Below the pieces are notes generated by a model. It was not told the DNA's origin. It saw only the letters and a list, made by a program, of their open reading frames with translations, and ran no database searches. A stretch of DNA of 63,494 bases, the filler included, from Folioceros fuciformis (lineage: Eukaryota): NCBI GenBank assembly GCA_049999805.1. It is 9 parts of 8 records of this genome, joined end to end, with 100 filler letters (N's around TTAATTAATTAA, not from the genome) between each part and the next. Parts side by side here need not be neighbours in the genome. Positions count along the whole stretch, not along the records: positions 29,032 to 39,188 come from JBNGIO010005561.1; 8 more parts are not named here. One strand, 5' to 3'. Shown here piece by piece: positions 12,858-63,494 of the stretch (position 1 is its first letter; each line of letters begins with the position of its first letter). A program made the position numbers and the translations under genes.

Positions 12858-12957
12858 NNNNNNNNNNNNNNNNNNNNNNNNNNNNNNNNNNNNNNNNNNN
12901 NTTAATTAATTAANNNNNNNNNNNNNNNNNNNNNNNNNNNNNNNNNNNNNNNNNNNN

Positions 12958-24715: not shown

Positions 24716-26039
24716 GTCATATAGCTTATAGGCCTTTGCCTCGTCTCCATAGCCAACAAATATCATAGGCTTGGCTCTGTCATCCAGCTTCTTACGTTTC
24801 TCTTCTAAGACATACACATAGGCTGGAGATCTGAAGACTTAAAGATGAAGAAGGCTCGGCTTCCTGCGCCAAATCACCTCAAATGGTGTCTGACCTACGA
24901 CAACACTTGTCAGAATGCAATTCATAATGTAAGTTGCAGTGACCACTACCTCTACCCAAAATGCCTTGCTCGACCCATACCATTCTAACATGCTTCTTGT
25001 CATTCCTAGCAGGGTCTGATTCCTTCTCTCAACAACATCGTTTTGCTGCTGGGTGTAAGGAACTATCAACTGCCTTACAATGCCATTGTCAAGTAGAAAC
25101 TGTGTGAAATGTGCATGGACAAACTCTGTCCCATTGTTTGTACGAAGACATTTCAACAGAAGTCCAGTCTGCCGCTGGATCATGACTAGCCACTCATGGA
25201 AGACATTGAAAGTATCAGACTTCAACCGAATCGGGTAGGTCCAGGAGTATCTAATGTAGTCATCTGTGATTATTAGGTAGTATTGTGCACCACCTAAACT
25301 GGGTATGTGGATTTTGCCAGAAATGTCAGCATGGACGAGATCAAGGACTTGAGATGCATGATGGGCAACAATTATAGGGAAAGGAACTTCGTTTTGTTTG
25401 GCTATTACACAGGCATCACGCAAAGGTAAGTCCTTAAAACATGTAGGCATGGGCTCTTAATAGCACGCTAGATTAGACATTTTTATCAGTTTATCCCGAT
25501 TAGCATGGCCTAGTCTAGCATGCCAAAGATTGGCCTCTGCAGCTTGGGAAGATTGGGCAACATGTACTATGATCTTGGCCAGCATCCACTTGAAGCTTGG
25601 GGTTCTGGCTTGCACATGCAGCATTTGTACCTGTATCTTAGTGTTGTTTCCCACTACTCTCCATGTCACAAATTGCAGCACAATCTGCTACAAGTGAGGA
25701 TAGTTCATGTCCAGAAAATGGAAGATTTTGATTCTAAGAGATTGCAGCAAAGAATTGCAGCAATCTGGGTTTGAAAGGAGCTACATGACACACGCAGCTT
25801 GGTGAGCATGGTGAGTCAGTTTGTTACACCATGAATTGCAACACTAGAATCAAAGGCACTAAAAACGTTCTTCATCCTAACTCCCAATTCTAGAGAACAC
25901 AAAAACATGGTTTGAGCTGCCTTCCCCAAGTTATAGCGCTGCGCGGCGCAACTTCAACAACTATCAACTTCTGCCCTGGCTGCCCCTTTTGCCTAGTGCC
26001 AGCCATCTTCACGATCCAGCGTCCAGCTGAGTTGGCTTC

Positions 26040-29000
26040 TGACATAAATGGAGAGCAGGAGAGAATTTGAATCATAAGGCAATACATTAACAAAATAATA
26101 ATAATTACAAAGTAATGTAAAGAGTGCATATTATCTATGCTAGGCATCTCTTCGCTAAAGTGACCTTTGAATAATTAAACTAAACTTAACTAACCACAAC
26201 TAACCGGGGGTGAACCCTAAGCGAGTGAGGTTACCCCGTGAACACCCTCCCTTAAGCAAAACAAGCTTAGGAATTATGACGGGACTGAACACGGGTTTTG
26301 CAAAGCAGGTGAGGACGACAACAAGGAGAAGATGGGCAAGCGAGGCTTAATGAGCAACACTCATCACTCAGAGAGGACGTGCGGCTGGAAAGTGTTGTTC
26401 AACGTGATCTTGTGCTGGACGAAACTCGGGAGAGAAGAAGAACTTAGGGATTGGATTAACTTCGAGCTTCATCCACCTGACCTGTTTTTCAGACTGCTAT
26501 AGTGTTGTGGTAGCTAACCCTTCCTGTCGCCTGATGGCAGGCACATAAGAACACAGAAGGAAGAGCTACACTTCACAATACTGAGGACCCAGGTCTCACC
26601 CGTAAGTCTTCTTTGCAGTAGGTTAAGCTGCGGGTTTGAAATAGGATTGAAAGTTTATCAGCCCAAGTGCCTGCATATGCTTCTGATGTTTATCCTTTGG
26701 CAGGGCCTTTGTTAGGATGTCTGCTGTGTTATTCTCAATAGGCACGTAGAGAATTTTAACTAACCCCCTCGTAGCAGCATCCCTAACATAGTGATGATGG
26801 ACTTCAATATGTTTCGTCCGAGCGTGGAAGCGGGGATTTGCAACAAGGACGATGGCTGATTGATTGTCACAGTAGAGGTGAGTAGGGCCATCTTGTGTTT
26901 GCCGAAGGTCATGTAAAAAAGACTGCTCCCATTCCACTTCCTAGTAGCATCTATAAGTGATTTGTATTCAGCTTCAGTGCTTGACAGGGCTATACTGGTC
27001 TGCTTTTTGCAGCTCCAGTTGATGGAAGCTTGGGCAAGGAGGAAAGCATAGGCGGACAAACTCTTACGGGAGTTACTATCCGATGCCCAATCAGCGTAAG
27101 TATGCCCTTCAAGAGTGAGTTGAGTGGTCTGGTGTGCTCCTCGTCTATAGCAGAGTCCAATGTAGGGCGAGCCTTTGAGGTAACGAAAAATACGTTTGAC
27201 AACAGTCCAGTGAGCACGACCAGGGTTATCCAAGAACTGGGACACTGTACTAACGGAATGTTGGATGTCAGGGCATGTCCAGTTGCTGACAAAAAGCAAG
27301 CAGCCAACAGCCTTTCGATAGGGGACATCCTACATGTCCAAGCAGTGAGCATCTGTAACAGGACACTCATATCGGGTAAGTTTAGCTCCTACAGAGCCTG
27401 GAGTAGAAGAGGGACGGGCTTGTCCCATGTTGAATTTGTGTAAGATTTCAGCAACATATTTGTGTTGATGGATAAGCCCCTCTGATTGAACTCGAAGCAC
27501 TTGTATCCCTAAGCAGAAAAGTAGATCACCACTGTCTGTCATTTCAAATGTTTTTCTTAACATATCCTTTACGTGTGACAGGATATGTTGGTTACTAGCA
27601 GCAAGGATCACGTCATCCACGTGTAGAGCTAGGATGACATAGGTGGTGCCTTCTCGGAAGATGTACACATTGGAGTCAGCTTCGCACTGTTCAAAACCCA
27701 AGGTTTTCAGGGCTGTGTCACACCTCTTATACCAGCGTTTTGCACTCTGTTTTAACCCATACAGGCACTTGATGAGTAAGCAAACATGATCTGGATGTGC
27801 AGGATCAACGTAACCTTCCGGCTACTCCATGTACAACTCCTCCTCAAGAATCCCATGGAGGAAAGCCGTGCAAACACCCATCTGCTGCAATTCCAGGTCG
27901 TACTCAGCAGCTAGGGCCAAGATAATGCGGATGGACTAAGCACGCACCACTGGAGAAAAAGTGTCCTGGTAATCTAAACCAGCAACTTGGGTAAACCCCC
28001 TGGCACACAACCTTGCTTTGTAACGGGATATGTGCCCGTCAACATTCAATTTGTGTTTAAACACCCATTTACAGGTGATAGCCTTTCTGTTTGCAGGTCT
28101 AGGAACCAGACGCCAAGTGCCATTTTTTATGAGGCTATTATACTCATCATCAACACCAAATTGCCATTTAGTTTTATCTGGGCCTGTCAAGGGCTCTGTA
28201 AGAGTAGCTGGCTCCAGAGGAACTGCAGGAGGAGAGGAGACAGTTGAAGTTGTAGGTCGTCGGAAGTCTATACTGGTATATGGAGGGTCCCTCCAGTCAG
28301 AAGGCAGAGAGGTTTGTGACGAGAAGAGCGACGGAGTCCAGCATCTTCATTTCAAGAAGGGTCATAGGCAATAGCAGGGGCAGGTATAGTCACGTCATCC
28401 ACAGCTGGTAAATCAACTGGCAAATTGTCTGGGGCATTTTCAATGTCTATATCTGCCTCTGCAAATAGGCCATTGAACCCTAATGGAGTAGGATCTATAA
28501 CTCGTTCTTCTGCTGCAACGGGGTGTGCAGCATCCTGGTCCTCATCAGCAACAGGTAGATGCTGAGCAGGGTGGACACCAGCAAGTTCATAGTTAGGTTG
28601 GTCCTGGTTCTCGGCTAGGAGATCAAGGATAGCAGGCCCGTCAGCATCCTTAGGATATAAGGATAGAAGACCTGTGGACCCTTCTAAAGCATTGGCTTCT
28701 TCTGTAGTGGATGATCGTTCGAAAGAGTCATGCTGAATAGCAACATGTGCAAATTGCAGAGACTCCACGAAAGTAATGCTCCGTGCCAGAATTGGTTGTA
28801 AAGTTGTAGGATCAATGAGCTTGTAGGCTTTTACAATTTCACTATAGCCAACAAAGACTAATGCTCTTGATTGGTTGCCTAATTTCCTGCATTTTTCTGC
28901 AGGAACATAAGCATAGGCTTTTGAGCCAAAGNNNNNNNNNNNNNNNNNNNNNNNNNNNNNNNNNNNNNNNNNNNNTTAATTAATTAANNNNNNNNNNNNN

Positions 29001-30896
29001 NNNNNNNNNNNNNNNNNNNNNNNNNNNNNNNCCAGTTACAGTTACCAGGGCGTTTGGAGGATGGACCAACATCACTGCGTTGTCCTTCATTGCGGGGACC
29101 CTGGTAGAAGCCCGGCTATGGTGGTATCCGCATTCTTCCTCTTTGTGCCCCTCGTCCACGGGAAGCAGTCAGGACTCTGTCAACTTTGGTTTTCCCAGAC
29201 CCTGACAAGAGCCCCTATCTCCTCGTCTAAGGTGAGAGTAATTTGTTGTCCTGCAACTCCGACAGCCCTAGCCTGTCGGATGGGGACATTGTGTGCAGAT
29301 ACAAAGTTCTGGTAATTAGGCGGAAGGCTGGTGAGCAATTTTGCAATCACGTCCACCTCGTCCATCACTGTACCAAGAGAGGTAAGTTGTGCTCTAAGGT
29401 GTCTAAGCTTGCTGGTGTGAGCAAGTACTTTGTCCCCTTCGTGCATTTTAAGTCCATAGAACTCCATACGCAAAGTACAAAGTGTAAGGACATTGTTTAT
29501 CCGATACTGACCCTCCAACTGTGCCTAGATTTCACTGGCCTTAGTGAGAAATTCGATCTGTGGAATAAGATCTTGAGTCAGGCCAGAGACAAGGAGAGCA
29601 ATACCAATGCTATTCGCATGAGCCCACTTATCTCTTTCTCCTGTGAGGGCTGTAACAGGAGGCTCTGGAATAGATCCATCTACTACTCCCCAAACTCCTC
29701 TAGCTAACAGAGTAGATTTCATGCGAACTCTCCACACCTCGTATTTCTGGCCATTAAACTTGTCATTTTCTTTTAATTCGGAAGTGAAGACAGTGGTAGC
29801 CAGCTAGGGGTGCAGGTGGTGATGGAGGAGGTGGGTTAATGCTAGTCATGGTAGTAGGATAACCTGGGCGTGTGTTTAGGGCGGGTGTGTTAAGGGCTAT
29901 TTGGTCAGCACCGAAGAGATTGACTTATCAAGATATGTGCCTGTGCAAGAGAAATGAACAGGCATGGACTAGGAGAAAGAGGCATCAATAAGACACCAAG
30001 AGACATGGCAGCACCGAAACGGTAAAAAAACTAGAAGACCTAACTTCCAAGGGGTCTACCAGTTCACAGGATTTGGACATCAATGTGAAAAACCCTAACT
30101 GCCAAGGGGTACACCGGTTCACATGAGTTCGACATTCATGAGAAAACCCTAACTCGTTTGTGCATCCGACTTTCTAGGAGTGGGCAACAAGGTTGGAAGA
30201 TACAATCCCATGGCTGGCTGTCTGTAGGGTTACGGCGACTACGCCTACGATGAGGCATGCTGTAGAAAAAGTGCAGCAATCATGTCTGAAATTATTCAGA
30301 CATTGTAATTGACAGTTGTGTGCTCCTAGGAGGAGCAATATGGGCTTGAGTATAGTTCCAAAATTATTTAGAAATAATTGTGTGACTTTGCTGAAGTCCC
30401 TATTGTTCTTCCTCTGCAACAGTGTCAGCTTTTGTTCTCTTAATAAATTAATAATTGGAATAACTGAGATTCCATATATGATTTTGTAGAAAATCTCTCA
30501 TGCTCCAATGCAGCGGAATTTAGTAGGATCGGAGGTTAAAAACCAGTCCTGTCCAGAATCTGAGGTCCAACCTTTGTAAAACTTTAATGGCAACATAGTC
30601 ATAGTTGCCATCAAATGTGAGATGATGCCAGTACATGCTTGAGTCTCGTTATCATTCACACATAATCATAAAGAGCCTTGCTCTGATACCATAACATAAA
30701 TGGAGAGCAGGAGAGATTATGAATCATAAGGCAATAAATTAACAAAATAATAATAATTACAAAGTAATGTAAAGAGTGCATATTATCTATGCTAGACATC
30801 TCTTCGCTAAAGTGACCTTTGAATAATTAAACTAAGCTTAACTAACCACAACTAATCTGGGGTAAACCTTAAGCGAGTGAGGTTACCCCGTGAACA
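26040..30896 (-). mobile_element. Ty1/Copia element with both LTRs (26040-26244 and 30692-30896), central gap
   Basis: 205-bp LTRs with about 10 mismatches by eye; TSD gcttc (26035-26039 / 30897-30901); PBS 30680-30691; PPT complement ccctccctt 26245-26253; gag 29180-29737; RT/RNase H 26623-28190. Confidence 0.95.
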
Positions 30897-31303
30897 GCTT
30901 CACGCCCTTGCATCAGCATTGCTCCTTCCATGATGCCTTGCTAGTGTACCCTAAATTCTGTTGTTTTCCCACGTTGGGCACAGGGTTACACCAACAACAA
31001 GTTGGAAATACCCAACATGTGTTCCAACTCAACTTGCCTAAAAACATCTAGCTATTTCTAAGCTAGTTTGCAAAATATCTAGCTAAGCTAGGTTCATTTA
31101 TCCTAGCATTGGTTTACTTAAGACATATATTTGCTATCCTATTCTAAACAACATTGGCTGAGGGTTTCTTACCTAATCGGCAGTCACCATCGTGACAACT
31201 GTTGTGCGAGGGCAATGTTGTGATGAGTCGAGTCGTGATCCTGGCCAGCATCCACTTGAAGCTTGGGGTTCCGGCTTGCACATGCAGCATTTGTACCTGT
31301 ATC

Positions 31304-32116
31304 TTAGTGTTGTTTCCCACTACTCTCCATGTCACAAGTTGCAGCACAGTCTTCTGCAAGTGAGGACAATCCATGTCCAGAAAATGGAAGATACTGATTC
31401 CCCCCCCCCCTAGCTGATTGTGCCATAGTTACAGCTGGTGTAGCACAGCAAGGGCAGTACCAAAGGTGCTCAAGAACCTCCGAGAGAGGTGGATTGAGAC
31501 AAAACAAATGGTAACCACCATTGCAGTGGTCACAAAGTAGCATCAACTCAGCGTCGTCAATCCTCCGGCATACCTGGCATGGGAAATCTCGAGGAGGAAT
31601 CCAATTGGCGGTGACGATGGTTGGGTCCAGGTTAGGAAGGTGGCAGGGCGCGCAATTCTTGATATGGTCTGTGATGGTGTGCCCATTTGACCCTTGCAGT
31701 AGCAAGATCCCATTTGGTCGGACCTCCCTTACTCGCAACACGTGACGGCTGCTGACAATGTCCAAAGTGTCTCTTATTTGCCGTTGCAAGTATACGAAAT
31801 CCCCCACTGGAAATTTCTTCAGTTTGGGTCTGAAACTACCACTGCGAGTGTATGCATACCGCAATGTGTCCCGGTGTTGTGCAATGTGGAGATTGGCCAT
31901 TGCCATGGACATCATTTGCCTGAACAATGCAGCCCTCTCACCAATAGCACATGCCCAAGCAGCAGGATCATCCAGATCCAAAACTTCTGCCATGTGCTTG
32001 GCAATAGCACTGGGCAGTATGGGCTCCCTCCAAAACAGCAAAAAGTAGGGACTGAAGTGAGCTAAGGAGGCATGTCTGCTGAGCCTGTACCCCATGGCAA
32101 TGTATGGTAGGGCCAA
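31304..32116 (-). CDS. Gypsy integrase C-terminus with PHD finger (fragment of decayed pol)
   Basis: FSPYFLLFWREP, FPVGDFVYLQ, then C4HC3 pattern CQVC...LLCDHCNGGYHLFCLNPPL...WYCPCC. Confidence 0.88.
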   Translation of the reverse strand: MALPYIAMGYRLSRHASLAHFSPYFLLFWREPILPSAIAKHMAEVLDLDDPAAWACAIGERAALFRQMMSMAMANLHIAQHRDTLRYAYTRSGSFRPKLKKFPVGDFVYLQRQIRDTLDIVSSRHVLRVREVRPNGILLLQGSNGHTITDHIKNCAPCHLPNLDPTIVTANWIPPRDFPCQVCRRIDDAELMLLCDHCNGGYHLFCLNPPLSEVLEHLWYCPCCATPAVTMAQSARGGGNQYLPFSGHGLSSLAEDCAATCDMESSGKQH

Positions 32117-32417
32117 ATCCCCCTATGTCTTGGGCATCCATAAGCATAGTTTCCTCAGCCCCTTCTTGATATTTGCACCAAACTCTCTGCGAGACCATCG
32201 GCTCGGGGGTGGTCTCGACTAGTCCTGCGATGGTCAATCAATGTTGCATCCAGTAGATCTTGGAATTCTCCTCGGAATTCAGAGCCCTGATTTGTCAAGC
32301 ACTCAGCACAACTTCCCAAGCGTGCCAGCACATTCTAAAGGAAAGCCTACGCTGTGCTTCTAGATGTCTTATCAGGAAGGGCCACTACTTTGATCCACTT
32401 GCTGAAATGCTCCATCA

Positions 32418-32710
32418 TGTCAATAGGATCAACTCCAGTCTACGTGCAAGTGTAGGAGAGGAGAGGAGAGAAGAGAGGGTGGTATTGGTGATCACAACCA
32501 TGAAAACAATACACATCACCACTGTCTTACTATGGAGGTCCGAGGTCTCCATTTAAGTAGTACATTTAGGGCTACACAACTTCCAGGTTCAATATGGGAT
32601 AATCTACACTATCCTAAGTTCACTAATAACTAGAACTAGTCTAGTATGAACCCAACTGGGATAACTAACACCACATGAGTTTAGCTCATATAGAGCTCGA
32701 TAACTCAACA
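32418..32710. mobile_element. Solo LTR (293 bp) in Gypsy integrase; same family as 11111-11403, inverted
   Basis: TG...CA termini; TSD catca (32413-32417 / 32711-32715). Confidence 0.92.
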
Positions 32711-34398
32711 CATCATAACAAGCACGTAGACATTGCCCCTTGGTGTACGAGGGAGTTCCCCAAGCAGGTCACAGGACCACCAAAAGAATAAACCCATGAT
32801 GGGCAAAGGCTGTAGCTATCGATTCTGAATGTTGAAGGTGGTCTTAACTCTATCACACTCCACACAACAAGCCACTTGTTGCTTCACTCGGGCATGCATC
32901 CCGTACCAATGAAAATGTGGAACCAAGAGGCTGTAGGTCCTTTTGACACCAAAGTGACCCATGTCGTCATGGACTTGACGAATCAACTGCTCCCTCTCAG
33001 CTGGTGGAGGCACAAGACGTTCCCCTCCGTTACCCAACCTTCGCAGCAAGTAGTTGTCTCGCCAGTAGTACAGCTCAGCACATTGACGGATGCGCTCCTG
33101 GACTGCTGGCTTTAGTGACGTGTCCATTTGTTCAGTTTGCACAAAGTGCAAAGTCTCAACATCCTCCCAGATGTCCTTGGGCCTGGTAGTACTTGCATTA
33201 ACCTCCAACTGTCCCAAGCATATCATGGCCACTAGGGCTGCCACATTAAGACCCTCTGCCTCATCGCTATCCAAATCCTGTCGGGCTGCGGTTACATCAA
33301 CATGACTGTCTAGGATTCCTGGACAAGGTGTCAGCATTCTGGTGTTTCATGCCGAGCCTGTGCACCACATTGAACTCATAATCTTGCAGGATCATAGCCC
33401 ATCTTGCCAACTTACCATTGAGCTTGGTGTTCATCATCAGCCACTTGAGAGGCTGGTGATTTTGTCACCAATGTAAAGGGCTTCCCAAACATATAAGGGC
33501 GGAAATGGCAAACAGCCCACACGGTCGCTAAGCATTCCCCATGGTAACTGCTGTAGTTGGCCTCCACACGGTTATTGCTGCGGGATGCGTAAGCTATAAT
33601 GCGCTTGCGTCCCTCTTCATCTAGCTGTGTGAGGACAGCCCCAAGCCCCAGCACACTCTAGTCTGTGTGCACCACAAAGGCCTTGGAAAAATCAGGTCTA
33701 GCCATCACAAAGGCCGCGATTAGCTGAGCGTTGAGCATGTCAAAGGCCTCCTGTGCAGCAGCTATTCAGCTCTAGTGCACATCCTTGTGCAGTAGATCAT
33801 TCAATGGCTTTGCAATTCAGCTAAAACTCTAAATGTATACCCTGTAATAGTTGCATAAGCCCAAGAAAGCCCTCAATGTTGAAACATTGGTTGGCTCCTT
33901 CACTTGCCGAATGGCCTGCACCTTGGCTGAATGTGGCATTACCCCCTTTGGCACAATTCAATGTCCCAAAAAAGCCACAGTATCCATGCCAAATTCACAC
34001 TTGGCAGGATGGCAAGTCAAGTTTGCCTTGCGCAGTTGAATGAATAGATCCTCAAGGTGCTCCAAGTGACTCTCAAAGTCTAGGTTGTGCACCAACACGT
34101 CATCAATGTAGCATATCATGTGTGCAGATCTTGCTAAGACCATGTCCATCACCCGTTGAAACGTCGCCAGTGCATTTTTAAAGCCAAAGGGCATCACAAG
34201 CCATTCCCATAGCTATCAAGAGCCCAAGAAAGGCTGTCTTCTTGATGTCCTCCTCTACCACCGGGACTTGGTTGAATCCTTGCCGGAGATCCAATATGGA
34301 GAAAAACATAGAATTGTCGATGCTGTCGAAGATTTCCTCAAGAGTTGGCATGGGATATCGGTCTTGGGCAGTCACAGCGTTGATGGGACGATAGTCCC

Positions 34399-34647
34399 TG
34401 TCGGGTTTTAGATGCTTAGGCAGCGAGCACGAGAGCGAGATGCAAAGACTTAGAATAATGTCATCGTCTTCATAGTCACAGGAACGCGTTACATAGTGTA
34501 TATAATAACCGCTAACCGTTTCTACCTTCATGCGCGCGTGCAGGCAGCCGCGGCATGAACGACTAACTGTTTAGCCCTAAACTAAACCTGGCCGCTATAC
34601 AAATATAAATAAAATTCAAAGTGAGGGTTGCATTACGCTCCCCAACA
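34399..34647. mobile_element. Solo LTR (249 bp) in Gypsy RT
   Basis: TGTCGGG...CCCAACA termini; TSD gtccc (34394-34398 / 34648-34652); removal restores EKRMCGDYRP. Confidence 0.92.
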
Positions 34648-35180
34648 GTCCCCACACATTCGCTTCTCTGTCCACATTCCATTGCTATCCTTCTTCGGAG
34701 GCATGACTGTTGCTGCAGCATAATCTGAGCTTGAGGGATGGGTAAGCCCAGCCTCCAGCAACTCCTAGCATAGTGCGTCCACCATCTCCCACTCTGTTTG
34801 GCTGAGCCTCTAACGCCGCCTATAGATGGGCTCATCACTGGTCAACTTGATGCGGAAGACAATCACATTGCAACGTTTCAATTCCTTCATGGAGAAGGCA
34901 AAACAGTCCTTGTATTTCAGCAATAGACTGCGAACCTGAGCCTGCTGCTTGCTTGTGAGCTTGGGTCCCATGGTCAAGAGAAACTTCTCAGTGGAAGGGC
35001 GTGGCTTGTGCTCAGGTCTTGCACTCCATGCACAGTCCCCCTCTAAACTTGAGACCAAAAAAACAGGCTNNNNNNNNNNNNNNNNNNNNNNNNNNNNNNN
35101 NNNNNNNNNNNNNNNNNNNNNNNNNNNNNNNNNNNNNNNNNNNNNNNNNNNNNNNNNNNNNNNNNNNNNAGCCAGTATGA

Positions 35181-35617
35181 TCATGTAGTGTGGCTAGGGA
35201 ATGGGAGATGATTAGCATCTGCAGTACAAGTGTGGGAGAAATGGGGGACATGGCGAGGACCTGTGCGAGACATGAGTTGAAAGGCCAGGTAGATGCTGAC
35301 CAACCATGTCACTACATAAAGATCCATAACACGGCCCAAGTCTAAGCACCGCTGCTGAACTGTGACTTGCGGTGCTGCTGTAGAATGGGTGTGAAAACCC
35401 ATCACTTGCTCCCGTTCCTCCACAGTGGGTTCCTCCCACTGCTGTGTGTCAGTGTTCAACAACATGCCAGCTCCCTGCCCTCTATATGCATGAGAGCTGG
35501 GATAGCTCACCAGCGTAGAAAGGGTACTACGTGGCTGTCCTGGGACGTTGGTGCTGTACCAGGGCTTCCTCTCAACAGCACGGACAGGACGGGGCTGGTG
35601 ATTGTTGTCCAGGACTG
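35181..35617 (-). pseudogene. C-terminal fragment of a cytosine-5 DNA methyltransferase (TRD end, motifs IX and X) in the retrotransposon polyprotein
   Basis: EREQVMGFHTHSTAAPQVTVQQRCLDLGRVMDLYVVTWL aligns without gaps to the DNMT3 C-terminal pattern E.E.vfGF..H.T.........R...LGR.....V...L; the N-terminal part is cut off by the Copia insertion at ~35618. Confidence 0.75.
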
Positions 35618-37803
35618 TGACCAAGCTCAAGGATGAAACCATATAAATAATTATATAGAGTCCAGTACTTAGGTTAGTAGATGAGTTAACAAACCTGATG
35701 CTCAAGCATCGTTACAGTTGTAACCATTTTTCTTGGCTGTCACATACATGTCGTGGTCAAAGACTTAACAATCTAATGATCCTATTCGTGTTATGGTATC
35801 AGAGCGGGATCTACGCTGATCTATCATGTCTGCAATTGCGGCAACTACACTAATCCTACTGCCTATTACGGAGTATGGGAGAACTGTGTTCTTGATCAAC
35901 AATAGTTGGCCAAGAGACGCACCAGCAGTGGTCTGGGAGATGATTCGTGCATATTGCTTCTCAGACGTGAGGATCAACAGGAGCGACCCGTTCTAATTCC
36001 CACTCGAACCGCGTCCACCTGGTTATCTGCATCTCTGCACTCCGGCCTAGCATGGGACACTGGAACCTGCATACAAATGCGCTTTAGGAGCACTTCTTGG
36101 AGTAATGTCATGCAGTTTCATGGTGCACCACGCCCGGCTTACGCAGAAGGGAGCGCCTAGTTAGGCGTGCACTGAGGCTAGTGATTATCTCTGAGTACAC
36201 TCGCCGGCGTGAGAGGAATTATCAAGAGATGCTTGCACCTAGAAATAGGTGGCAACAAGTCTAGATTAGGGTCTGCATAATCTTGGAATTGATGGCAACA
36301 AATATCGTTCAAGGTTTTGAGCCAAATGATGGATGTGATTGGAGCTGTGTGGATATTACAGACATTTACCTATAGCTGGAGATGTCAACCTCGTCTGAGT
36401 CCACCTTTGTCATCAGCTTACCTGCAACACCAGAGTATGTTTTTCACATTATTCTAGGCACATTAGTGAGATTGTTTAGTCTTCAACTAGTAACCCCTAC
36501 GTACAATTACATATATTCTTATGCAAGTCATGTGGTGGACAAGCTGCATTCTGAATTATGCTTTGTAGAGTCAATTGATATACTCATGTCCTTAGAAGTA
36601 GAGAGTCCACTTCATGCACCTTCCTCCTGCAAGGCAAGATTCCATCCCATTTCATGAGTCTCTTCCTATATAGGTTAGAGTCATGACAGGGCAGCAGCCC
36701 CCAACACCTCTTGCCTTGGCCAAGGAGGACAAGTTTGATGGAGAAAACTTCAACCTATGGAAGTTCAGAATGGAGGAGCTGCTGAAATCAAGGGACCTTT
36801 GGGAGTACGTAGGTGCAGCAGTCATCAAAGCTGAACCACCAACATCTGCGCCCACTGACGAGATTGCAGCATGGAAAGCTACAAACCAACAGGCCAAGAG
36901 CACGCTCACCATGAGTGTAAAGAGCTCTCATTTTGCCACTTTGATGGGATCCATAACATTTGCAGCAACACTGTGGAAGCAGCTATTAGAAGTTTATGAT
37001 GTAGCTGATCTTATGCTCAAAACTCACACGCTTAAATCATTTGTGGGATTAAGGATGTTGGAGACAAACAAAGTGGCAGAGTTTATACTTATATGGAGAA
37101 GCTCGCAGACAAGTTCAGTGCACTTGGCTTTACACTTGACGAGGAGGTGATGGCGGTCATTCTCTTGTCACAACTGCTTGAAACTTGGATAAATGTTGTC
37201 CAGTCCCTGCAAAATGTAGCAGCCATCACGGTTAACCATGTTATCTCCACGATGCTTACCGAGGAGAATCGCCGGAAGATGGCCACATCTTCCATAGCTA
37301 CAGGGGACAAAGCCCTGTTCACCAATAAATTTGGTCTAGGCAGAGGCAGGGGAAGAGGTAAGCCAACATTCAAAGGCAGTGGCCGTGGCCAAGGCTTCCC
37401 AACTCAACCATCCTCATTTAACTCAAACAGACCAAAGCCACTTTGCGGCTACTGTGGGATCCCAAACCACACATGGGATGTCTACAGAAAAAGATTGGCA
37501 AACGAGTTAGGAGGCAGACACATAGGCAGCAACCTGGCTGTAACCATGAAGAAATACTCAAAAGCATTTACAGCATGTGTCCAGCATGAAGCATAAGAAG
37601 CTACACATGACAAGAGTATTTCAGCACTTGTGGTCACGTGCTATGCATCAAAACCTGAACATGCATGGTATATTGATTCCGAGGCCTCCCAACACATTAC
37701 CCCTCATCACTCCTACTTTACTAATCTGCAGCCAATACAAGAGGAGAGATATGTATGTTTAGGAGATGATACAACTCACAAAATAGAAGGACAAGGTACC
37801 ATA
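35618..37803 (+). mobile_element. Ty1/Copia element, 5' part (LTR ~35618-35793, PBS 35794-35805, gag, protease)
   Basis: TGGTATCAGAGC PBS; gag KFDGENFNLWKFRMEELL (36683-37150, frameshifted into 37093-37596 with degenerate knuckle CGYCGIPNH); protease-like WYIDS at ~37666. Confidence 0.9.
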
Positions 37804-39188: not shown

Positions 39189-39793
39189 NNNNNNNNNNNN
39201 NNNNNNNNNNNNNNNNNNNNNNNNNNNNNNNNTTAATTAATTAANNNNNNNNNNNNNNNNNNNNNNNNNNNNNNNNNNNNNNNNNNNNTGATTAGGGAAC
39301 AGGCCAGTTGTGGACTTAGGCAAAAGTAAGGGCCGAGACGACGGGGCGACGGTAGCCGGCAGGGCAACCGTCGCCGGAGGGACGACTGGTAGTAGCCCGA
39401 TGGGCAGTAAGGAGAGAAAGCAGGCAGGGCATAGAAACCCTAGAGAAAGGGGAGCTTTGTACAGCATCCGAAAGCGCGGGGAGCGGGAGTAACTTGAAGC
39501 GTGAAGTGGCTGAAGGAGGAGAAAGCGCCAGGACGATGGGGCAGACAGCGCAGGGCGTGAGGGTTGAGCAGGCACAGGGGAGTGGGAGACCTCCAAGGCG
39601 CGAGCGGTGGAGAGAGTTGGGCGAACAGAGGAAGAGCCAGAGCGTGACCAGGACAGAAGAGTTCCGAGCCCGAGCGTGAGGGGAGGAGGACAGCCAGGAT
39701 GAGGTCGCGGCCTGAACTGATCCCCGGAGCAGTAGCCTCTAGACAGGGGGGGGACCTCCTGTCCCCCGAATCGACCTACTCCTGTGGCCCAAT

Positions 39794-41391
39794 ATGGAGC
39801 ACTGGAGGGTAAGGGCAAGAAAGTTGGTGGCAGAGCTGGGTCTGACTTTTATGACCCAAAAGTGGAACCATGCAGCACCCCAGCTGGTCAGGGAGTGCGC
39901 CCTGAGGCTGATAGAGCCTGTACACGAGGAGGGGATCAGAGGCAGACCCCAGGAATGGAACCTGGAGTTGATCAGGAGGGTCTACGGGCGCGACCAACAG
40001 GAGAAAGGGGGACTGGTGCTGGAGTCCCTGAAGAGGCGTGGCGGAACGGGAGCCGCGGAGACGCTGCTCAAGGTAGGCACGAGAAAGGAAGCGAACGGGT
40101 GGCTGGTGCGTGACATGGCAAGTCCCCAGCTGTTGGGATTGGCCAGGTGGTTCCTGAGCTTCTTCCAGGTACGCAAACAGGATTATCTGTCCGATCAGAT
40201 GCTCCTGTTTGTGCATGAAGTAGTGAAGGGCACCAGGATCGACTGGGGGAGGATTTTATACACCCGGAGGATGGATGAGGAGAGGCAGAACCTGATCCAA
40301 CCCACCCCTAAACCTTCTATGATTTCCCCGTTTCTAATCCATGTGTACAGTTACGCTAACCTGGTCACTGAGCTAGAAATGCTGGCCTCGCTGCACCTGT
40401 GGAAGCCAGTTCGCGATGTGAAGTGGAAGCCCGCTGAGCCAGCAAGGGCTGCCTCCAGCAATTGGGAAGGTGACAGTGGGAATAGCTCGCAGGAGGAAAC
40501 CCCAGTCAAGCCCAGGAAGAGGATGGTGCCACAAAAGAAGACTCCTGCCAAGAGGAAAAGGACCAGAGGACAAAGTGTGAGCATGGGGGCTGATCAGGAG
40601 GAAGGGGGGACAGCCCTGGAGCAGACGGGTCAGCAGGAGGCAGAACGAGAACCAGCTGTCAAGGGAATCAAGGACCGAAAGTTGGAAGAGCAAGGTCAGG
40701 GTGAGACAAGACCCGAGGAGCCACCGGATCAGGTGATGGCAGCCGACACAGTTTCCTCCAGACAGGAGGATAAGTTAGGGCACGTTTCAGCACAGGAGAG
40801 TTCCTCAAGGTGGAAGGACATTTTCAGGTGTAGGCCTCAGAGAGACAGGTTGCAGGTGGGGGACCTGGACAAGTTGCGAGAGTTCCTGGGCAGATAAATC
40901 ACGGCGAGAGGAATGGGCGCCGGAGGGGTGCAGGAGGTGGACCGACCCGGGCTGACTGCTGCGATGGTGCAGGCCCAAGCAGATCTCCTGAATCAGGCTG
41001 CTAGGGCCCTGACCTGGTTAAGTGTACAGGCGGAGCGAGAGGCCGAGGCTCGGGGAAAGGAGGAGAAGGCTCATGAGCGAGAGGCTGAGCAAGGAGGCAA
41101 CTGGCGGAGTCGGAGACGGCGCGGCAACTGCTGGAGGAGAAGCAGCAGGTCCTGGACAGGGAGAAGACTCAAGCCGAGGAAGAGGCGTGCGAGGCGAGGG
41201 CTGAAGTGCAGGTGCTGAAAGAGCAACATGGGACCCTGCTAGCTCAGGTGAGGGAGGCTCACGAGACTAACCTGGAGATGCAAAAGGAAATGGCCAGGGC
41301 ACAGGAGATGGAGATAGCCGCTGTGGAGAGCAGGCTCAAAAGTTGGCTGATAGATACAAGCGGGAGCGGGATGAGGCTAGAGAGAGAGTGA
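39794..41391 (+). pseudogene. Retroelement accessory ORF (helical domain plus coiled-coil tail), interrupted
   Basis: ORF 39794-40897 has NGW...GTRIDWGRILY...SPFLIHVY, homologous to 13150-14482; it continues through a stop and frameshifts into E/A/Q-rich coiled-coil fragments 40913-41391. Confidence 0.6.
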
Positions 41392-42263
41392 AGGGGAAGA
41401 GCAAGGCTGGGCGTCCGAGTAAGTCGGCGACCCCGGTAGTAGAAGGGGCTACCGGTAGCCGAACCAGGGGAACGGTAGTTGAGGGGACTACCGGTAGTCC
41501 GGTAGTCCACGTGACTACCAATAGCAGGGTAGCCGACGGGGCTACCGGTGGCCCAGCAAGGCCCAGGATAGCTGAAGAACCAACCCTAGAAACAAAGGAG
41601 GAAGCAGTAGTGGCGCCTGCCCCTAGGCGCTCCAGGAGGGTGACCCGTACCAGGAGGATAGAGCCGGAGGAGGCAACAGCTGGGCAGGCAGAGAACCTTC
41701 AGGTAGCCCAGCAGGAGGGGGAGCAGGCAACCCGAGGTAGCCCAAGGGAGGACGGGGTAAGCACCTCTGTTATGACAGAAGGTCGGATTGTGCTGCAGTA
41801 TGAGGAGGAGGCCTCCTATGTGCCAGGCCTGTATGTAGAAGAGGCCAGAGTTATGAAGCTGTTTCTGTATGTACGTATGGGCACAGGAGGGACGTGGGGC
41901 TACGGCCTACAGTTGAGGACGCGCCTGGGACTCTACCACTACAGCTGGTGGGTGACAGGACTGCCCCACTGCTATGCGGAGGCAGTTCTGGAGGAACTGA
42001 CGGAAGAGGAGGCCCAGCGCTGGGTAGAACGGGGGCCTGTGGCTGTCCTCAGCAACCAGAGAAGGAGGAGGAGTGGTGGCCCACAGCGGCAGGACCCACC
42101 TGCGCCGCCAGCCTGGTCCAGCAGCAGCAGCAGCAGTGATGTGGAGATCCTCTGGGAGGATTTGCCGGACCAACGGAGGGGCAGAAGAGCAAGAGGAGGG
42201 GCAGCAAGGGGTGACACGCGAAGGCCAGGAGGAAGCCGCCAGCGGCGTGGAAAAGGGCGATAG
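41343..42263 (+). CDS. Hypothetical 306-aa ORF (disordered ends, W/Y-rich core), probably retroelement-associated
   Basis: Open frame with core LFLYVRMGTGGTWGYGLQLRTRLGLYHYSWWVTG; no known motif recognised. Confidence 0.35.
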   Translation: MADRYKRERDEARERVKGKSKAGRPSKSATPVVEGATGSRTRGTVVEGTTGSPVVHVTTNSRVADGATGGPARPRIAEEPTLETKEEAVVAPAPRRSRRVTRTRRIEPEEATAGQAENLQVAQQEGEQATRGSPREDGVSTSVMTEGRIVLQYEEEASYVPGLYVEEARVMKLFLYVRMGTGGTWGYGLQLRTRLGLYHYSWWVTGLPHCYAEAVLEELTEEEAQRWVERGPVAVLSNQRRRRSGGPQRQDPPAPPAWSSSSSSSDVEILWEDLPDQRRGRRARGGAARGDTRRPGGSRQRRGKGR

Positions 42264-43317: not shown

Positions 43318-43417
43318 NNNNNNNNNNNNNNNNNNNNNNNNNNNNNNNNNNNNNNNNNNNNTTAATTAATTAANNNNNNNNNNNNNNNNNNNNNNNNNNN
43401 NNNNNNNNNNNNNNNNN

Positions 43418-46192
43418 TGACAACCATCCAGTGCTATAATTGTCGAGGCATAGGGCACTTTGCGAACAGCTGTCCCTCGGCTACGCGCCAAGGGAATGGG
43501 GACTATGAGAGGCTGTGCACTGACTGCAAGCAAATGGGCCATGGGGTTGGAAGTGTTTTGTGTGCTGCACCAAAGAAACACGTGAGGATTGCCCCCACCC
43601 TAGCCGTGGTGATTCAGGCCCCTGGTCCAAGTGCTCCTCCTGCGATACCGGTGACAGACGCATTAATGGCTGTATGGGAAGATGCGGAAGGAAGCATGTT
43701 GAGGATGTTGGAGGGGTTGGGTAGCTTGGACGGACAATATTACGAGGAAGCCCCTGCCATGGCCGTCCAAACTCGGGGACGAGCAAAAGCAGCAAAGAAC
43801 AAGCAGTTGGGGCATAGGGAGCATGGAGGAAAGGACCAAACTACATCCTCCAATACTTCTACCCCGCCACTCCGATCATCAGGGAGGAACAGGAGTTGCC
43901 AAGTACAGAAGAACCCCCACAAAATTTGGGGAAGGCGGAATTCAGAGGTGGTCGGGCCAAGGAATCAGCACCGCGCGTGGAGGAAGAACGACGATCTGAG
44001 GAGAGGATGGGCCGGAAGGCAGAAGAAGGAGGAAAGGATTGGCGGCTGGATGAAATGAGGAAATTGGGATTTCCCCCGGATGTGCGTCAGGAGGTGGCTA
44101 ACATGATTCAAGAGGAGTTGAATCAATCGCTGGAGGGTGCGGCAACAAAAGGGGGGCTAGCCAAGACCACGCCAGCAAGGGAACAGGACGGGCCAAAGGA
44201 CGCGACCACTCGGCCCACGGCAGGGGAAGAGAAGGGGAGATCATGAGTGTTGGATTTGGCGGAAGCCATCATGGATCAGAAATTCATGGTGACTTTTGGA
44301 CAATTGCTCCAAGATACACCGCGATATCGGCAGCAGTTAAGGCGAGCATTGAAGATGGCACAACCAAGGAGGAAACCAAGTCTGCCAAGGGTGAGACCAA
44401 GGACACACGCTGTGAATTTGGTAACCATGACAGATCAAGGACCAGCCAAGCTGCAAATCGAAATCGCGGGATGTGTAATTAAGAAAGTACCTTTGGACAC
44501 AGGGTCTGGAGTAAACATTATGACTGAAGACACAGCCCGGAAATTGGGTTTGGAAATCGAGCACACGACCAAGGTCTTGCGATTGGTGGATATGTCAAAA
44601 ATGACGCCAGTCGGAGAAATTATTGGGGTATTAACCCATATTGGGACTATCCCCTACCTCATGGACTATGTCGTGATCAGGCAGAAAGCCCCGAGTTATG
44701 AAGTGCTGATTGGCAGAAACTGGATGTATGGTGCCAGGTGGACGTTCAAATGGGGGCGGAAGGAAGTAGGCTTTAAACCAGTAGACTGGGATCCAAAGGC
44801 TAAGGAAGGAAGAATGTGTCTGTCTTGGAGTAAGGATATGTACGCAGGTGAGACACCCTCTGAGACGGAGGGGTACACTTCAGCCGAAGACACGGGAGGA
44901 CAGGCAGATGAGGATGAAAGATTTCTGTTTGCGCATATCTCGTGGTCGGAGGAAGAGAAGGATTACTAGGGGTAGCTACCTAGGGTTAATTGTTACAGGG
45001 TCACAGAGGCGGAAGCAGATGAGGAGACGGGGGAAGAAGACATTTCCTCAGGGGAACGTGAGGTAGTCCCTTGGACTACTGCAGTGGCCCGAGGGGAACG
45101 GACGGTAGCCCAAGAGGGTACCAAGGTAGTCGGATCGGAAGGGATCAAAGAGGGTGATCTGGACATGAGGATTCCTAAGGATCAGGAGGGCGTCACGAGG
45201 ATCACCTCCGAAGAGCTGTTTAGTGAATGGGGGATGAGGGAGGCAGAGCTCCGAAGGCCAGAGGAAGGGTTTGGTGTTACTTCAGCACCGATTGAACGAG
45301 AGTGGGTACAGGCGGATGAGATCAAGGATGTGGAGGTCCTGCCAGGAAAAATCCTTAAGTTCTCCACCAGGCTAGATGCGATGCTGGAAGAAGGGATGAA
45401 GAACCTGCTGGCCGAGTTTATTGATGTGTTTGCGTTTGATGTCACAGACATGAAAGGCATTCTCAAGGAGTGGGGAGAGCATAGGATTGAGCTGGAACGA
45501 GGGGCAGTGCCTGTGAGGATACCCCAGTATAAGTTGAACCCAAAGTACTCCCTGAAAGTAAAGGAACAGCTAGAGCTATACCTGAAGGCAGACATCATTT
45601 ATCCCATTGTCACCTCTGAATGGGTGGAACCAATTGTAGTGGTACCCAAGAAACAGCCTGGGAAAATTCGAGTATGCTAGGACTGGAGGAGGTTGAACAA
45701 GGTGACTCAAAAGGATCACTTCCCGTTACCTTTCATTGACAACATTCTGGACCTAGTGGTGGGGAAAATGACGTATTCCTTTTTGGACGGGTACTCAGGG
45801 TATAACCAATTACATCTCCGGGAGAGCGACTGGCCGTTAACTGCCTTCACCACCGTCAGGGGAACATACGCTTACAAGCGCAGCGCATTTGGACTGACTG
45901 GAGCACCAGGGTCCTTCATGAGAACAATCGTCAAGATTTTTAAAGATTTCCTACGAGACTTTATGGAAGTATTCCTGGACGATTTCTGTGTGTTTGGGTT
46001 AGCGGGGGAGCATCTACAGCACCTGAGGAAATGCCTGGAAAGGTGTAGAGAGGCCAAACTATGCCTCCACCCGGAAAAGTGTTATTTCGGGATGTCGGAA
46101 GGTATCTTGTTGGGGCATAGGATTTCGGCTAGAGGGATTGAGGTGGATCCTGACAAAGTAAAGATCATTAAAGCACTCCGACCACCGACCAC
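43418..46192 (+). mobile_element. Ty3/Gypsy gag-pol fragment (zinc knuckles, protease, RT), degenerate
   Basis: CYNCRGIGHFANSC, LDTGSGVN, FLDGYSGYNQ, FLDDF; bounded by gaps. Confidence 0.92.
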
Positions 46193-46292
46193 NNNNNNNN
46201 NNNNNNNNNNNNNNNNNNNNNNNNNNNNNNNNNNNNTTAATTAATTAANNNNNNNNNNNNNNNNNNNNNNNNNNNNNNNNNNNNNNNNNNNN

Positions 46293-49200
46293 CATATAGG
46301 CTCTCTAGTGCCCCTCCCACTACCAAAGGCCAAGGACTACCCAGCCACCTCGAACACCTGGTCTGGCTACAGGTTCACCCTAAAACCTCATTGTCCAAGG
46401 AGACCTTGGGTATAAATACCCCTATCTTGTTCTCAACCTAGGCCGTTTTCTTCATCATGTCACAAAAAAAATTCAAAGTCCACTCACTCTGTCACTCAAA
46501 AAGGGGTTCGCGAATATTTTTTTCCTCTACATACTCCCCTTCTCACTTGTTGGCGTCCTCGCAAACCTAGGCATAATACTTCTTCACTCGCCAAGCGTTG
46601 ACTTTGGTCGGCAGCGGTTGCCCATCCAACTGCTGCAACTGAATGGATCAGTTGGCGAAGACTTCAACTACCCAATACGATCCCATCCACCTCAGATGTA
46701 GCTTCCCAGGGAAATGCATGTACCTGTTGTCATACAGCAAAGCTAAGTCCCCGGGTGTCACCCACTCCTGCTTCCTCAACTTGTGGTCATGCCACTCCTT
46801 CCTTTTTGCCTGCATCTCCTGCGTAGCCTCCCAAGCCTGTTCTCTGTTTTCAGTGTGCCTTACGAAATTAACCAATCGTTCCAGCTAGCTTTCCTCTACC
46901 GACATGCGCTTCTCCTTTTGAACGCATAAGGTTGGAACTTCAAACTCCGTTGGCATCATTGGATGATGCCCATAGGTAAGGTAGTAAGGCGTCTTCTGCA
47001 TTGTGATCCTTTCCGCCGTCCTGTACGCCCAGAGCGCCAAGTAGAGCTTGAGATCCCACTCGTAAGCATACTCCACTATTAGCTTGTTAAGAATCAGGCA
47101 CAAGAGTCCATTCGCTTTCTCTGTCAGTCAATTGGCTTTTGGGTTGTAGGGAGTCGTCCATCGGTGTCACACATTAAAGTACTCAGCCAGGTGAGAAATG
47201 ACTTCTTTAATGAAGTGTGTACCCCGATCACTCACCAACTCCAAGGGACAACCATATCGGGCGATTACCTGTTCAAAAAAAAACTTAGCTACCATGTGGA
47301 CTGTGTCCACATGAAGAGGTTGGGCTTCCACCATTCGCGTGCAGTAGTCTGTGGCCATGAGTATGTACTGATTCTGTCGGATACTGGTTTTTGGCTAGAT
47401 AGGTCCCACAAAGTCGATTCCCCATTTCTCAAACGAGGCCAAAGCCAGAATCGGGACCAAAGGCCACTAAGTAGTCGAGGTTGGTTTACTGAACCTCGCG
47501 CATGCGTCGCACTTCTTGACAAATTCTCTAGTGTCCTTGTGCATAGTCGGCCACCAGTATCCTATCTCCAAAATCTTCCTGTAGGTGATGTGCGCGGCGA
47601 AGTGTCCACCTGCCTCTCCCTCATGCAACCCTGCCAGTACTCGATCAATCCTCCCCTCCATTACCCAAAGCCTTTCTCTCCCATCTGGTCCTACGCGATA
47701 CAACTCATCCCTGTTGTGGATGAATAGTCGTACATAGTGCACAAACGCCTGTAGTTGCTGTCGGGATAAGTCGGCGGGAATGCTGCCCATCCCCAAGAAT
47801 TTAGATACCTCTTGGTAGGTGGGTTTGATGAAGCCGACCCTCCCCTTCTCATTTCCTACAGTGCCTTCATCTTCACATCGTTTTTGGTTGGGCACGGCCG
47901 CTTCGTCCTCCATCTCTGTCGTGAACACAGTTTCATCGAGAAACTCATCCTCTGGACTTCGAACTACTTCCTCTGTCTGCATGCAAAATATAATCGGCAT
48001 TCACATGCTTGCGGCCCTCTCTTGTCTCCACTGTGAAGGTGAACTCCTACAGCAGAAGAATCCACTTGCGATGCGCTCGGACAAGTCCACCTTGATCACC
48101 AGATGTTTGAGCGCAAAATGATCCACATGGAAAACAAACTCATACAAGAGCAAGTAGTGTCGGAACTTTTGAACTGAGTACACCATCCCCAACGCTTCCC
48201 TCTCAATGGTTGTGTACTTTCGCTCTACTTCTGGAGTTGTCGCCCTGCATAGTAGATGGGGTAGTCCCGTTTCTTCTCATCTTGCTGGCTAAGCACTACT
48301 CCGATTGCAAAGGCTGAGACATCCACATAAACATGGAATTTCTTACTCCAATCTGGACCTTTGAGAGTTGACACCAAAACGAGTGTAGTCCTGAGATCTC
48401 GAAACACTTCCTCCCTCTGCGACGTCCATACCCACTCCTGATCCTTCCTCAACAAGCTGGTCAATGGTGCGGCTCTCTTAGCGAAGTTCTTGATAAACCT
48501 CCTGTAGTATCCGACCATGCCTAGGAATCCTCTTAATTCCTTCAGCGTCGTAGGTGGTTGGAGAGGTGCAATTATTTGACCTTGTCGGGGTCCACTTCGA
48601 TTCCTCTCGCTGAGATTTGATGCCCCAACAGGATTCCTTCCACCATACCAAAATAACATTTCTCTGGATGCAGACACAGTTTGGCTTCCTTACATCTCTC
48701 CAGACACTTTCGCAAGTGTCCCAAGTGATCCTTCTCTGCTCCAAACACGCAAAAGTTGTCCAGGAACACTTCCATGAGGTCGCGGAGAAAATCCTTAAAA
48801 AAATTCACTATCGCCCTCATGAAAGATCCTGGCACTCCAGTCTGTCCAAAGGCGCTGCGTTTGTAGGCGTAGGTTCCCCAATCAGTGGTAAATGCAGTCA
48901 GTGCCAGTTGCTCTCCCGGAGATGAAGCTGATTGTATCCAGAGTACTTGTCTAGAAAAGCATACACCATTCGCCCCGCGACCAAGTCCAGAATGTTGTTG
49001 ATGAATGGTAGCAAAAAGTGGTCTTTATGGGTTACCTTGTTCAACCTTCGCCAGTCCTGGCATACCCTTATCTTGCCCGGTTGCTTCTTAGGTACCACGA
49101 CGATCGGCGCTACCCACTCCGAAGTGACAATGAGATAGATGATGTCTGCCCTGAGGTACATTTCTAGCTGCTCCTTAACCTTCAGTGAATACTTTGGGTT

Positions 49201-51617: not shown

Positions 51618-51717
51618 NNNNNNNNNNNNNNNNNNNNNNNNNNNNNNNNNNNNNNNNNNNNTTAATTAATTAANNNNNNNNNNNNNNNNNNNNNNNNNNN
51701 NNNNNNNNNNNNNNNNN

Positions 51718-56228: not shown

Positions 56229-56480
56229 NNNNNNNNNNNNNNNNNNNNNNNNNNNNNNNNNNNNNNNNNNNNTTAATTAATTAANNNNNNNNNNNNNNNN
56301 NNNNNNNNNNNNNNNNNNNNNNNNNNNNGATCAAGTCCGACCCTCCATCCACAGCAGCAAGGAACCCCATCGCTCCTTCGTGGGAACGAAACCCAATGTC
56401 TCAACGACAGTGGGATAAGTGTGGCCACTAAAGGTGGGACCCGTCGGCAATCAGTGCCCGGGGTTTTGCCTCCACATTTT

Positions 56481-62681: not shown

Positions 62682-62688
62682 GAGGGTT

Positions 62689-62725
62689 AGTTGTTTGCGA
62701 GGACGCAAACAGCTGAGAAGGGGGG
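62689..62725 (+). promoter_or_regulatory. Stem-loop (TGTTTGCG-agga-CGCAAACA) plus polypurine tract
   Basis: Perfect 8-bp stem at 62692-62711 followed by gagaagggggg; the same motif precedes the PPT of the 46.5-kb copy. Confidence 0.75.
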
Positions 62726-63494
62726 CATGTGAACCTCCAAAGTTTGGGGTAGTAGTTTGTTTTGGTTGAAAAAGGGTTAATAGTGGTATGGTTTGGTTTT
62801 CTTTTTCAACTTATTTTCCCTAATTTTCCTTGATTTTCTGGTCATTTTTCCTATTTTTCTGTGTGTTAATTAGGTTAATTGACCAGGAAATAGTTGGTTT
62901 GGTTATAAGAGTGGGTATAGGTTTGGTCCCAGAGCTGGGAAGGTTTAGGTTTGGTACCAGGCCATAGGGTTGGGTGATTAGTTTAATATTAATTAAAGAT
63001 ATATAATTAGTAAATGATTAAATAATAATAAAATAAAATAAAATAATAAAAATAATATAATAATGGTTTGAACATAGGAAGGGGTATCTGGGTGTGTCAG
63101 TGTCAGGGGTCAAGGTCTGACGATAGGCTGGCTGATTGCTTGGCTGGCATGAACGGCTGTGGAGGCCATGCCCTAGCTAGAGCTAGAGGCAGGGGTTACA
63201 GCCGCTCCATCCCTTTTCCCCCTCCCTTCCTTTCTCCCTTTCTCCCTTCCTCCTCCATTCCCTTCTTGCCCCCTTCCTCTTCTTCCTCCCTTCCTTCTCA
63301 ATCTTCCCTCCCTGTTTCTTCTTTGGATCTAGATTGCAGGCAGGAGGAGGGATCGACGGGTGATGTAAGAGAGGAGGCTGAGGCGAGCTAGGAGGCTGAG
63401 GCGAGCTGCAGGATTCGGCTGATGCAGGGCCAGGCCTGCCTTCTTCTCCCTCCCCCCCCCGATTTCCTTTCCCATCCCTCTCCTGCCTTGTCCC

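Follow-up and report, generated by a model that had tools for sequence, protein, structure and literature searches.

Cytosine methylation is the main route by which plants silence transposons, and a transposon that carries a methylase of its own therefore reverses the usual picture. The locus described here comes from Folioceros fuciformis (assembly GCA_049999805.1). A sequence-only reading had proposed that a Gypsy retrotransposon carries a cytosine-5 DNA methyltransferase (DNMT) domain, placed at 35181-35617, just upstream of its reverse transcriptase (RT). The window, by which we mean the whole stretch of DNA that was analysed, is 63,494 nucleotides long. It contains eight identical artificial spacers (44 N + TTAATTAATTAA + 44 N, with stop codons in all six frames) at positions 7214-7313, 12858-12957, 28932-29031, 39189-39288, 43318-43417, 46193-46292, 51618-51717, and 56229-56328, and because of these spacers it has to be regarded as stitched from pieces whose adjacency at the spacers is not guaranteed. 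The join at 28932-29031 looks true, because a Copia element with matching LTRs and a target duplication spans the spacer.

The minus strand of the window has an open frame of 176 codons at 35181-35711, in which the peptide quoted in the earlier reading is present and reads as given. The coding part of this frame is confined to 35184-35615 (144 open codons), because the 5' LTR of a Copia element on the plus strand starts at 35616 (35616-35793, start TGTGACC). The end of this LTR is adjoined by a tRNA-Met-type primer binding site (TGGTATCAGAGC) at 35794-35805. The Copia cut had been expected at about 35618; its boundary could be placed at 35615/35616. Of 154 blastx alignments to relatives, 52 end exactly at 35615, the family-profile alignment begins at about 35636, and the DNMT/Copia junction is crossed by contigs of sequencing runs X1 and X2, both from one sample, that show no difference from the window. 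A few pairwise alignments continue upstream of 35616, up to 35702; this apparent homology was rejected, as it lies in an AT-rich LTR with a TATA-like run. The 144 codons comprise the target-recognition region and motifs IX (EREQVMGF) and X (LGRVMD) of a DNMT3-type C5 methyltransferase, and a stop codon at 35181-35183 closes the ORF 11 bases before a scaffold gap. This gap of 100 N, reported at 35070-35169, is indeed located there and separates the DNMT remnant from the RT. The remainder of the domain is missing: neither tblastn with five full-length relatives nor a six-frame search with the family profile found motifs I-VIII, the protease or the gag of the Gypsy-DNMT family in the window, and profile positions 1-242, including the motif I FxGxG that is present in relatives, matched nowhere in it. 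The motif IV Cys and the motif VI Glu are likewise missing from the window copy, cut off at 35616. As motifs I-VIII are absent from the window, the DNMT of the window copy cannot be shown to have once been complete.

To which protein family the remnant belongs was addressed with the fragment itself and with its relatives. The Pfam check for PF00145 that the earlier reading had put forward came back empty (0 families at E ≤ 10 for the fragment). This blank is expected and is no refutation, because PF00145 skips the same C-terminal part in the relatives: it never covers that part, and its widest match, in the relative P0138, runs over profile positions 4-233 of 324. An exhaustive phmmer search of 1.84 billion representatives with the fragment as query retrieved 460 proteins at E ≤ 1e-3, 121 of them at E ≤ 1e-10, and long polyproteins are frequent among these hits. 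The top matches are 45-54% identical to the fragment and are retrotransposon polyproteins or short pieces of such. Directly N-terminal of the matched stretch, PF00145 was detected in four of seven long relatives (three above the Pfam cut-off and one below) and, above the cut-off, in four of nine further relatives, with scores of 46.1 bits in P0138, 41.5 in P0010, and 37.8 in L066 at a cut-off of 22. A word-indexed search aimed at longer proteins scored none of its 73 candidates when the fragment alone was the query, and succeeded with an alignment as query.

Two profiles were compared with solved structures. Profile A1, made of the fragment and 36 short matches (37 rows) and restricted to the fragment region, matched plant DRM (E 6.4e-4 to 2e-3) and DNMT3A (E 0.15), in all cases on motifs IX-X, and it also gave two off-target matches to RNF135 entries (0.022 and 0.07). 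Profile A2, made of 14 relatives over the whole domain (538 positions, reaching into the RT of several members), matched DNMT3A at E 2.4e-20, DNMT3B at 1.6e-17, DNMT3C at 2.5e-17, DRM at 1e-9, and M.HhaI at 1.4e-6. DRM was matched by A2 through motifs I-V only, and the match to DNMT3A consists of three collinear stretches, the last of which lies on the DNMT3A C-terminus. The domain is therefore best described as a non-permuted DNMT3-type C5 methyltransferase. The window ORF matches A2 at positions 243-381 of 538 with E 5e-42. The ungapped alignment to the DNMT3A C-terminus given in the earlier reading was recovered with 13 of 41 positions shared (counted by eye on chain 2qrv_A in the HMMER register). 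These profile comparisons place the window fragment at the C-terminal end of a non-permuted DNMT3-type domain, of which it covers the last third; the likeness is far beyond chance.

Motifs IX-X are common to host DNMT3, to DRM and to the fragment, and the remnant might thus stem from a host gene for DNMT3 or DRM, as a pseudogene or captured exon that came to lie beside the Gypsy by chance. We consider such an origin highly improbable, as all 91 classifiable relatives carry the stretch inside a retrotransposon polyprotein, the best matches described above are retrotransposon proteins or their fragments, and the family is linear, unlike the circularly permuted DRM. In alignments with the host enzymes DNMT3A/3B and plant DRM2 (2qrv, 6u8p, 4onj, and 7l4h), motifs I, IV, VI, VIII, IX, and X align with the family. 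The family has the linear motif order of DNMT3, unlike the permuted DRM, and its domain sits in a polyprotein. The PWWP/ADD and UBA companions of the host enzymes did not appear in Pfam scans of the relatives.

The Gypsy part of the claim was examined next to the fragment. As had been stated, a Gypsy RT lies just downstream on the same strand, with PF00078 matches at 33958-34212 (E 8.5e-17) and 34178-34411 (E 1.9e-5), and the order RT, RNase H, DDE integrase follows on the minus strand over 35067-31304 (PF00078, PF17917, and PF17921, with the integrase core detected by blastx). The 100-N gap lies between the DNMT fragment and this element. Contigs of four runs were placed on 34300-36300, and none of them covers 35037-35170, which is neutral for continuity. 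As the ORF stops before this unbridged gap, the continuity of DNMT and RT is inferred from relatives and not read. Matches to profile A2 flank the gap on the same strand, at 35636-35223 (profile positions 243-381) and at about 34996-34837 (positions 446-495, within 34813-35193), in the right order and at a spacing that suits a gap of roughly the stated size.

Domain order was scored on 203 family proteins with segments of P0138 as probes. The order RT-RNase H-DNMT-integrase was found in 66 of them and the order protease-DNMT-RT-RNase H-integrase, i.e., with the DNMT before the RT or after the protease, in 25; the other 112 were too short for an order call. P0138 (2188 aa) contains zf-CCHC, protease, PF00145 (46 bits), RT, RNase H, and integrase domains, and a single frame of L066, from the clade nearest to the window fragment, encodes protease-DNMT-RT-RNase H-integrase-PHD, interrupted by three stops. 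Gag and aspartic protease are present upstream in the relatives P0138, P0107, and L066. P0138 and L066 are thus full-form examples of the proposed Gypsy family with a DNMT in the polyprotein upstream of the RT, and the window element has the same order. A quick-search tree of 96 rows over the C-terminal region, with SH-aLRT as its only measure of support, places the window fragment in a set of five rows (SH-aLRT 98) to which P0287 (DNMT-RT-RNase H) belongs, and also in a 14-row group with support 92, in which all five classifiable rows have the DNMT before the RT. RNase H and integrase lie about 43 codons apart in the window and 47 codons apart in P0138; in P0071, where the DNMT is housed at that position, they are about 460 codons apart. 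With only about 43 codons between RNase H and integrase, the downstream window element has no other slot for a DNMT.

The order found for the window element could nevertheless be produced by a chimeric join, in which the scaffolder or a nested insertion brought together a DNMT remnant and an RT-RNase H-integrase part from different copies or elements. The missing contig support across 35037-35170 in all four runs and the stop of the ORF just before the gap agree with such a join, as do the nature of the window as a patchwork of nested elements and artificial spacers and the placement of the DNMT between RNase H and integrase in most relatives (66 vs. 25). We nevertheless judge a chimera to be rather unlikely, since the two sides of the gap agree with the family profile in strand, order, and spacing, the fragment clusters with relatives that have the DNMT before the RT, and the downstream element leaves no place for a DNMT between its RNase H and integrase. 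Even if two copies of one family had been joined, the family architecture would stand as stated. The comparison with relatives therefore supports a protease-DNMT-RT-RNase H-integrase type order for the window element and the assignment of the fragment to it.

The earlier observation is thus confirmed and its interpretation supported. Taken together, we estimate a probability of roughly 85% that the fragment represents the last third of a DNMT3-type methyltransferase domain that was built into the Gag-Pol of a Ty3/Gypsy family (gag-protease-DNMT-RT-RNase H-integrase-PHD), and that the window holds an old, dead, minus-strand copy of this family. The Copia insertion at 35616 would then have taken gag, protease and DNMT motifs I-VIII out of view.

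The structure of the window copy is that of a strongly decayed element. Downstream of the gap on the minus strand, a linker and the RT (33958-35067; PF00078, blastx) are disrupted by in-frame stops and frame changes and by a solo LTR of 249 nt (34399-34647, minus strand, TG...CA) that is flanked by a GGGAC duplication (34394-34398 and 34648-34652). The RNase H follows at 33303-33657 (minus strand, PF17917, E 9.5e-21) and the zinc-binding (H2C2) region of the integrase at 32711-33175 (minus strand, PF17921, E 1e-16). A second solo LTR, of 294 nt with a TGATG duplication, interrupts the integrase at 32417-32710 (minus strand). The integrase core and C-terminal tail occupy 31304-32415 (minus strand, blastx) and carry near their end, at about 31445-31579 on the same strand, a PHD finger (PF00628, E 3.1e-10). 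A terminal repeat, referred to as B, overlaps the end of the ORF at 31236-31400 (minus strand), and a second copy that is 93% identical to it lies at 25570-25734 (minus strand). A complete Copia element (26041-30897, minus strand; LTRs of about 204 nt, primer binding site at 30680-30691, and target duplication GCTTC) lies between the two copies. The 3' end of the Gypsy is probably at the second B copy (25570-25734). The window element, roughly 25570-35615 on the minus strand, is an old, dead, truncated copy. It does nothing now, because it has been cut by a Copia, carries two solo LTRs and a full Copia, and contains stop codons.

Other copies of the family exist in the sequenced sample, as seen from two kinds of contigs. 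On the DNMT fragment, five X1 contigs and six X2 contigs have G at 35519, where the window has A, and contigs of other copies are uninterrupted across the solo-LTR site in the RT (with loose ends at 34647). The solo LTR at 32417-32710 is also 99% identical to an inverted copy at 11111-11404, each having its own duplication (TGATG and TACTT, respectively), and this solo-LTR family has by that measure been recently active.

The terminal repeats of the family were compared among 13 related loci. The layout A-coding-B-A-B was found in six of them (L066, L060, L025, L032, L067, and L068); L007 has A only, L030 and L033 have B only, and four loci have neither. In the window, two B copies follow the ORF with the Copia between them, and the 5' A is out of view.

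The spread of the family was assessed from the relatives of the DNMT stretch and of the integrase. Among the relatives of the DNMT stretch, those with a named source belong to Closterium species, Haematococcus lacustris, Cymbomonas tetramitiformis, and Sphagnum magellanicum. The integrase-PHD ORF of the window is nearest to proteins of the liverwort Calypogeia fissa (70%), Sphagnum and Marchantia, which suggests a bryophyte host. A scan of metagenome contigs with P0287 yielded 586 relatives among 600 candidate stretches, and the related family thus comprises hundreds of copies. All 80 metagenome loci that were kept are decayed, the longest open frame being 847 aa and the next 494 aa. A PHD finger at the C-terminus of the integrase was also observed in the relatives P0071, P0022, and L066, and P0006 has a G-patch after the DNMT.

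The relatives also provide the catalytic residues that are lost from the window. The canonical motif IV reads PCQ, with a nearly universal Pro ahead of the catalytic Cys. The Cys itself is present in all 105 relatives with those columns filled, and the residue before it is Glu in 60 and Pro in 35 of these 105; most family members have ECQ, as compared with PCN in DNMT3A. Motif VI begins with Glu in all rows listed for it, and the AdoMet motif FxGxG is common in the relatives, with rows that have Cys, Tyr, or other changes. Pairwise dN/dS among 78 distinct loci, which form non-independent pairs and belong to the related family rather than to the window genome, was 0.38 in the N-terminal (catalytic) part and 0.57 in the C-terminal part of the DNMT, compared with 0.37 in the RT and 0.42 in the RNase H. 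Judged by these ratios, constraint on the catalytic half of the DNMT equalled that on the RT while the related family spread.

How far this constraint reflects DNA methylation has to be weighed against a domain that is real and not an active DNA methylase, having been repurposed or weakened, for example for DNA or RNA binding, recruitment of host factors, or another non-enzymatic role. The substitution of Glu for Pro ahead of the motif IV Cys in 60 of the 105 relatives would fit such a domain, and so would the yeast assay of the related element KnitGypsy-Dnmt3 from the alga Klebsormidium nitens, in which no methylation was seen, a result that its authors called inconclusive (de Mendoza et al., 2018; PMC5890265). 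The invariant motif IV Cys and motif VI Glu point the other way, as do the FxGxG motif, which is common although variant rows occur, the equal dN/dS of catalytic half and RT (0.38 vs. 0.37), and the activity of the DNMT3 domains of SymbioDIRS elements, which methylate CG (PMC5890265). On balance a non-methylating domain seems somewhat doubtful to us, without being far-fetched.

If instead the domain is an active methylase within Gag-Pol, a mechanism may be suggested for intact members of the family. The DNMT would be translated together with Pol and ride with the RT in the particle, where it could methylate the new cDNA, or it could methylate the DNA around the insertion. The PHD finger might read the state of the histone H3 tail and steer integration in the way presumed for chromoviral chromodomains. 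The authors of the 2018 paper proposed that a Pol-borne DNMT is likely to methylate the cDNA during reverse transcription, with possible gains in passing as self, in protection against deamination, and in the chromatin state of the new insertion, and they also weighed self-restraint of transposition (PMC5890265).

The Gypsy-DNMT3 kind of element as such, a rare design, has already been published (de Mendoza et al., 2018; PMC5890265). The earlier reading had cited retrotransposon-borne DNMTs from dinoflagellates and a charophyte alga, and this agrees with the Gypsy-DNMT3 of K. nitens and the Symbiodinium elements described in that paper. KnitGypsy-Dnmt3 resembles the family of the window in having a Gypsy Pol and a non-rearranged DNMT3-type domain with the key residues kept, and its DNMT is under purifying selection (PMC5890265). 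A figure legend of that paper describes an unusual A-coding-B-A-B repeat layout (PMC5890265). This layout is found in full in the six related loci listed above, and the two B copies at the 3' end of the window element would fit its B-A-B part. The host of KnitGypsy-Dnmt3 is a charophyte, whereas that of the window copy is bryophyte-like; the two were likened by description rather than by K. nitens sequence. The word PHD does not occur in the text of de Mendoza et al. (2018; PMC5890265). In Symbiodinium, SymbioDIRS-Dnmt3 and SymbioLINE-Dnmt also have a methyltransferase inside a retrotransposon, in the DIRS type as a DNMT3 in the Pol ORF (PMC5890265). Their backbones are of the DIRS (tyrosine recombinase) or LINE type, in contrast to the DDE-integrase Gypsy of the window.

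Chromoviruses carry a chromodomain on the C-terminus of the integrase, whereas the window element has a PHD finger (PF00628) at this position and a DNMT in addition; a reader on the integrase with a presumed role in steering integration would be common to both. Fusions of chromatin readers with transposable elements, including PHD fingers, have been surveyed (10.1101/2021.11.30.470311). EpiLTRs of Cymbomonas and Euglena are LTR elements that, as here, combine a methyltransferase with a chromatin reader (10.64898/2026.05.21.726589). Unlike that of the window's family, the EpiLTR DNMT is near the DNMT4 clade and lies at the 3' end of pol, together with an adenine methylase and a chromodomain (10.64898/2026.05.21.726589). 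The same 2026 preprint names "streptophytes (Gypsy-DNMT3)", and PMC12344493 mentions Gypsy-DNMT3 as previously reported; in the literature searched, work on Gypsy-DNMT3 by name consisted of the 2018 paper and the 2026 preprint only. The literature search gave no report of Gypsy-DNMT3 from bryophytes, Closterium, or chlorophytes, or with a PHD finger, and supplements may list more hosts. The family looks broader than the literature describes, in its probable bryophyte host, its wide green-algal spread, and the new PHD finger on the integrase, which is a modest extension. A wider proposal would be that bryophytes and many green algae harbour a large and old Gypsy lineage with a DNMT3-type methylase and a PHD finger, in which the methylase occupies two polyprotein positions, is under selection, and has an unusual ECQ catalytic loop; we put this forward tentatively, at somewhat below even odds.

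Bryophytes can be cultured and transformed, and a live bryophyte copy, if one exists, would make the role of a transposon-borne DNMT testable there. Should some bryophyte copies remain active, a land-plant genome would contain a working de novo methylase borne by a transposon, a situation that was encountered in no paper searched.

The surroundings of the element in the window contain further repeats. Gypsy copies with a gag with zinc knuckle, protease, RT, and integrase are found at 43366-46244 (plus strand), 46951-49553 (minus strand), and 59691-62730 (plus strand) and are 65-75% identical to each other; the DNMT profile matched none of these three copies. The Gypsy on the plus strand does not continue past the spacer at 46193-46292. 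Two long open frames of 384 and 330 aa, with a G+C content of 0.59 and rich in Arg, Glu, and Gly, lie at 39743-42263 (plus strand), and no probe matched them. A direct repeat of 525 bases (95%) at 13471-13995 and 14096-14616 flanks the other 100-N gap and is possibly an unmerged assembly overlap. For contigs of run X3, which derives from the same sample as X1, nearly all differences from the window over 34300-35560 are C>T (10) or G>A (12), with 29 kinds of change counted. The loose ends of these contigs are poor in C or G, and the run looks bisulfite- or enzyme-converted, so that it could give the methylation state of the element.
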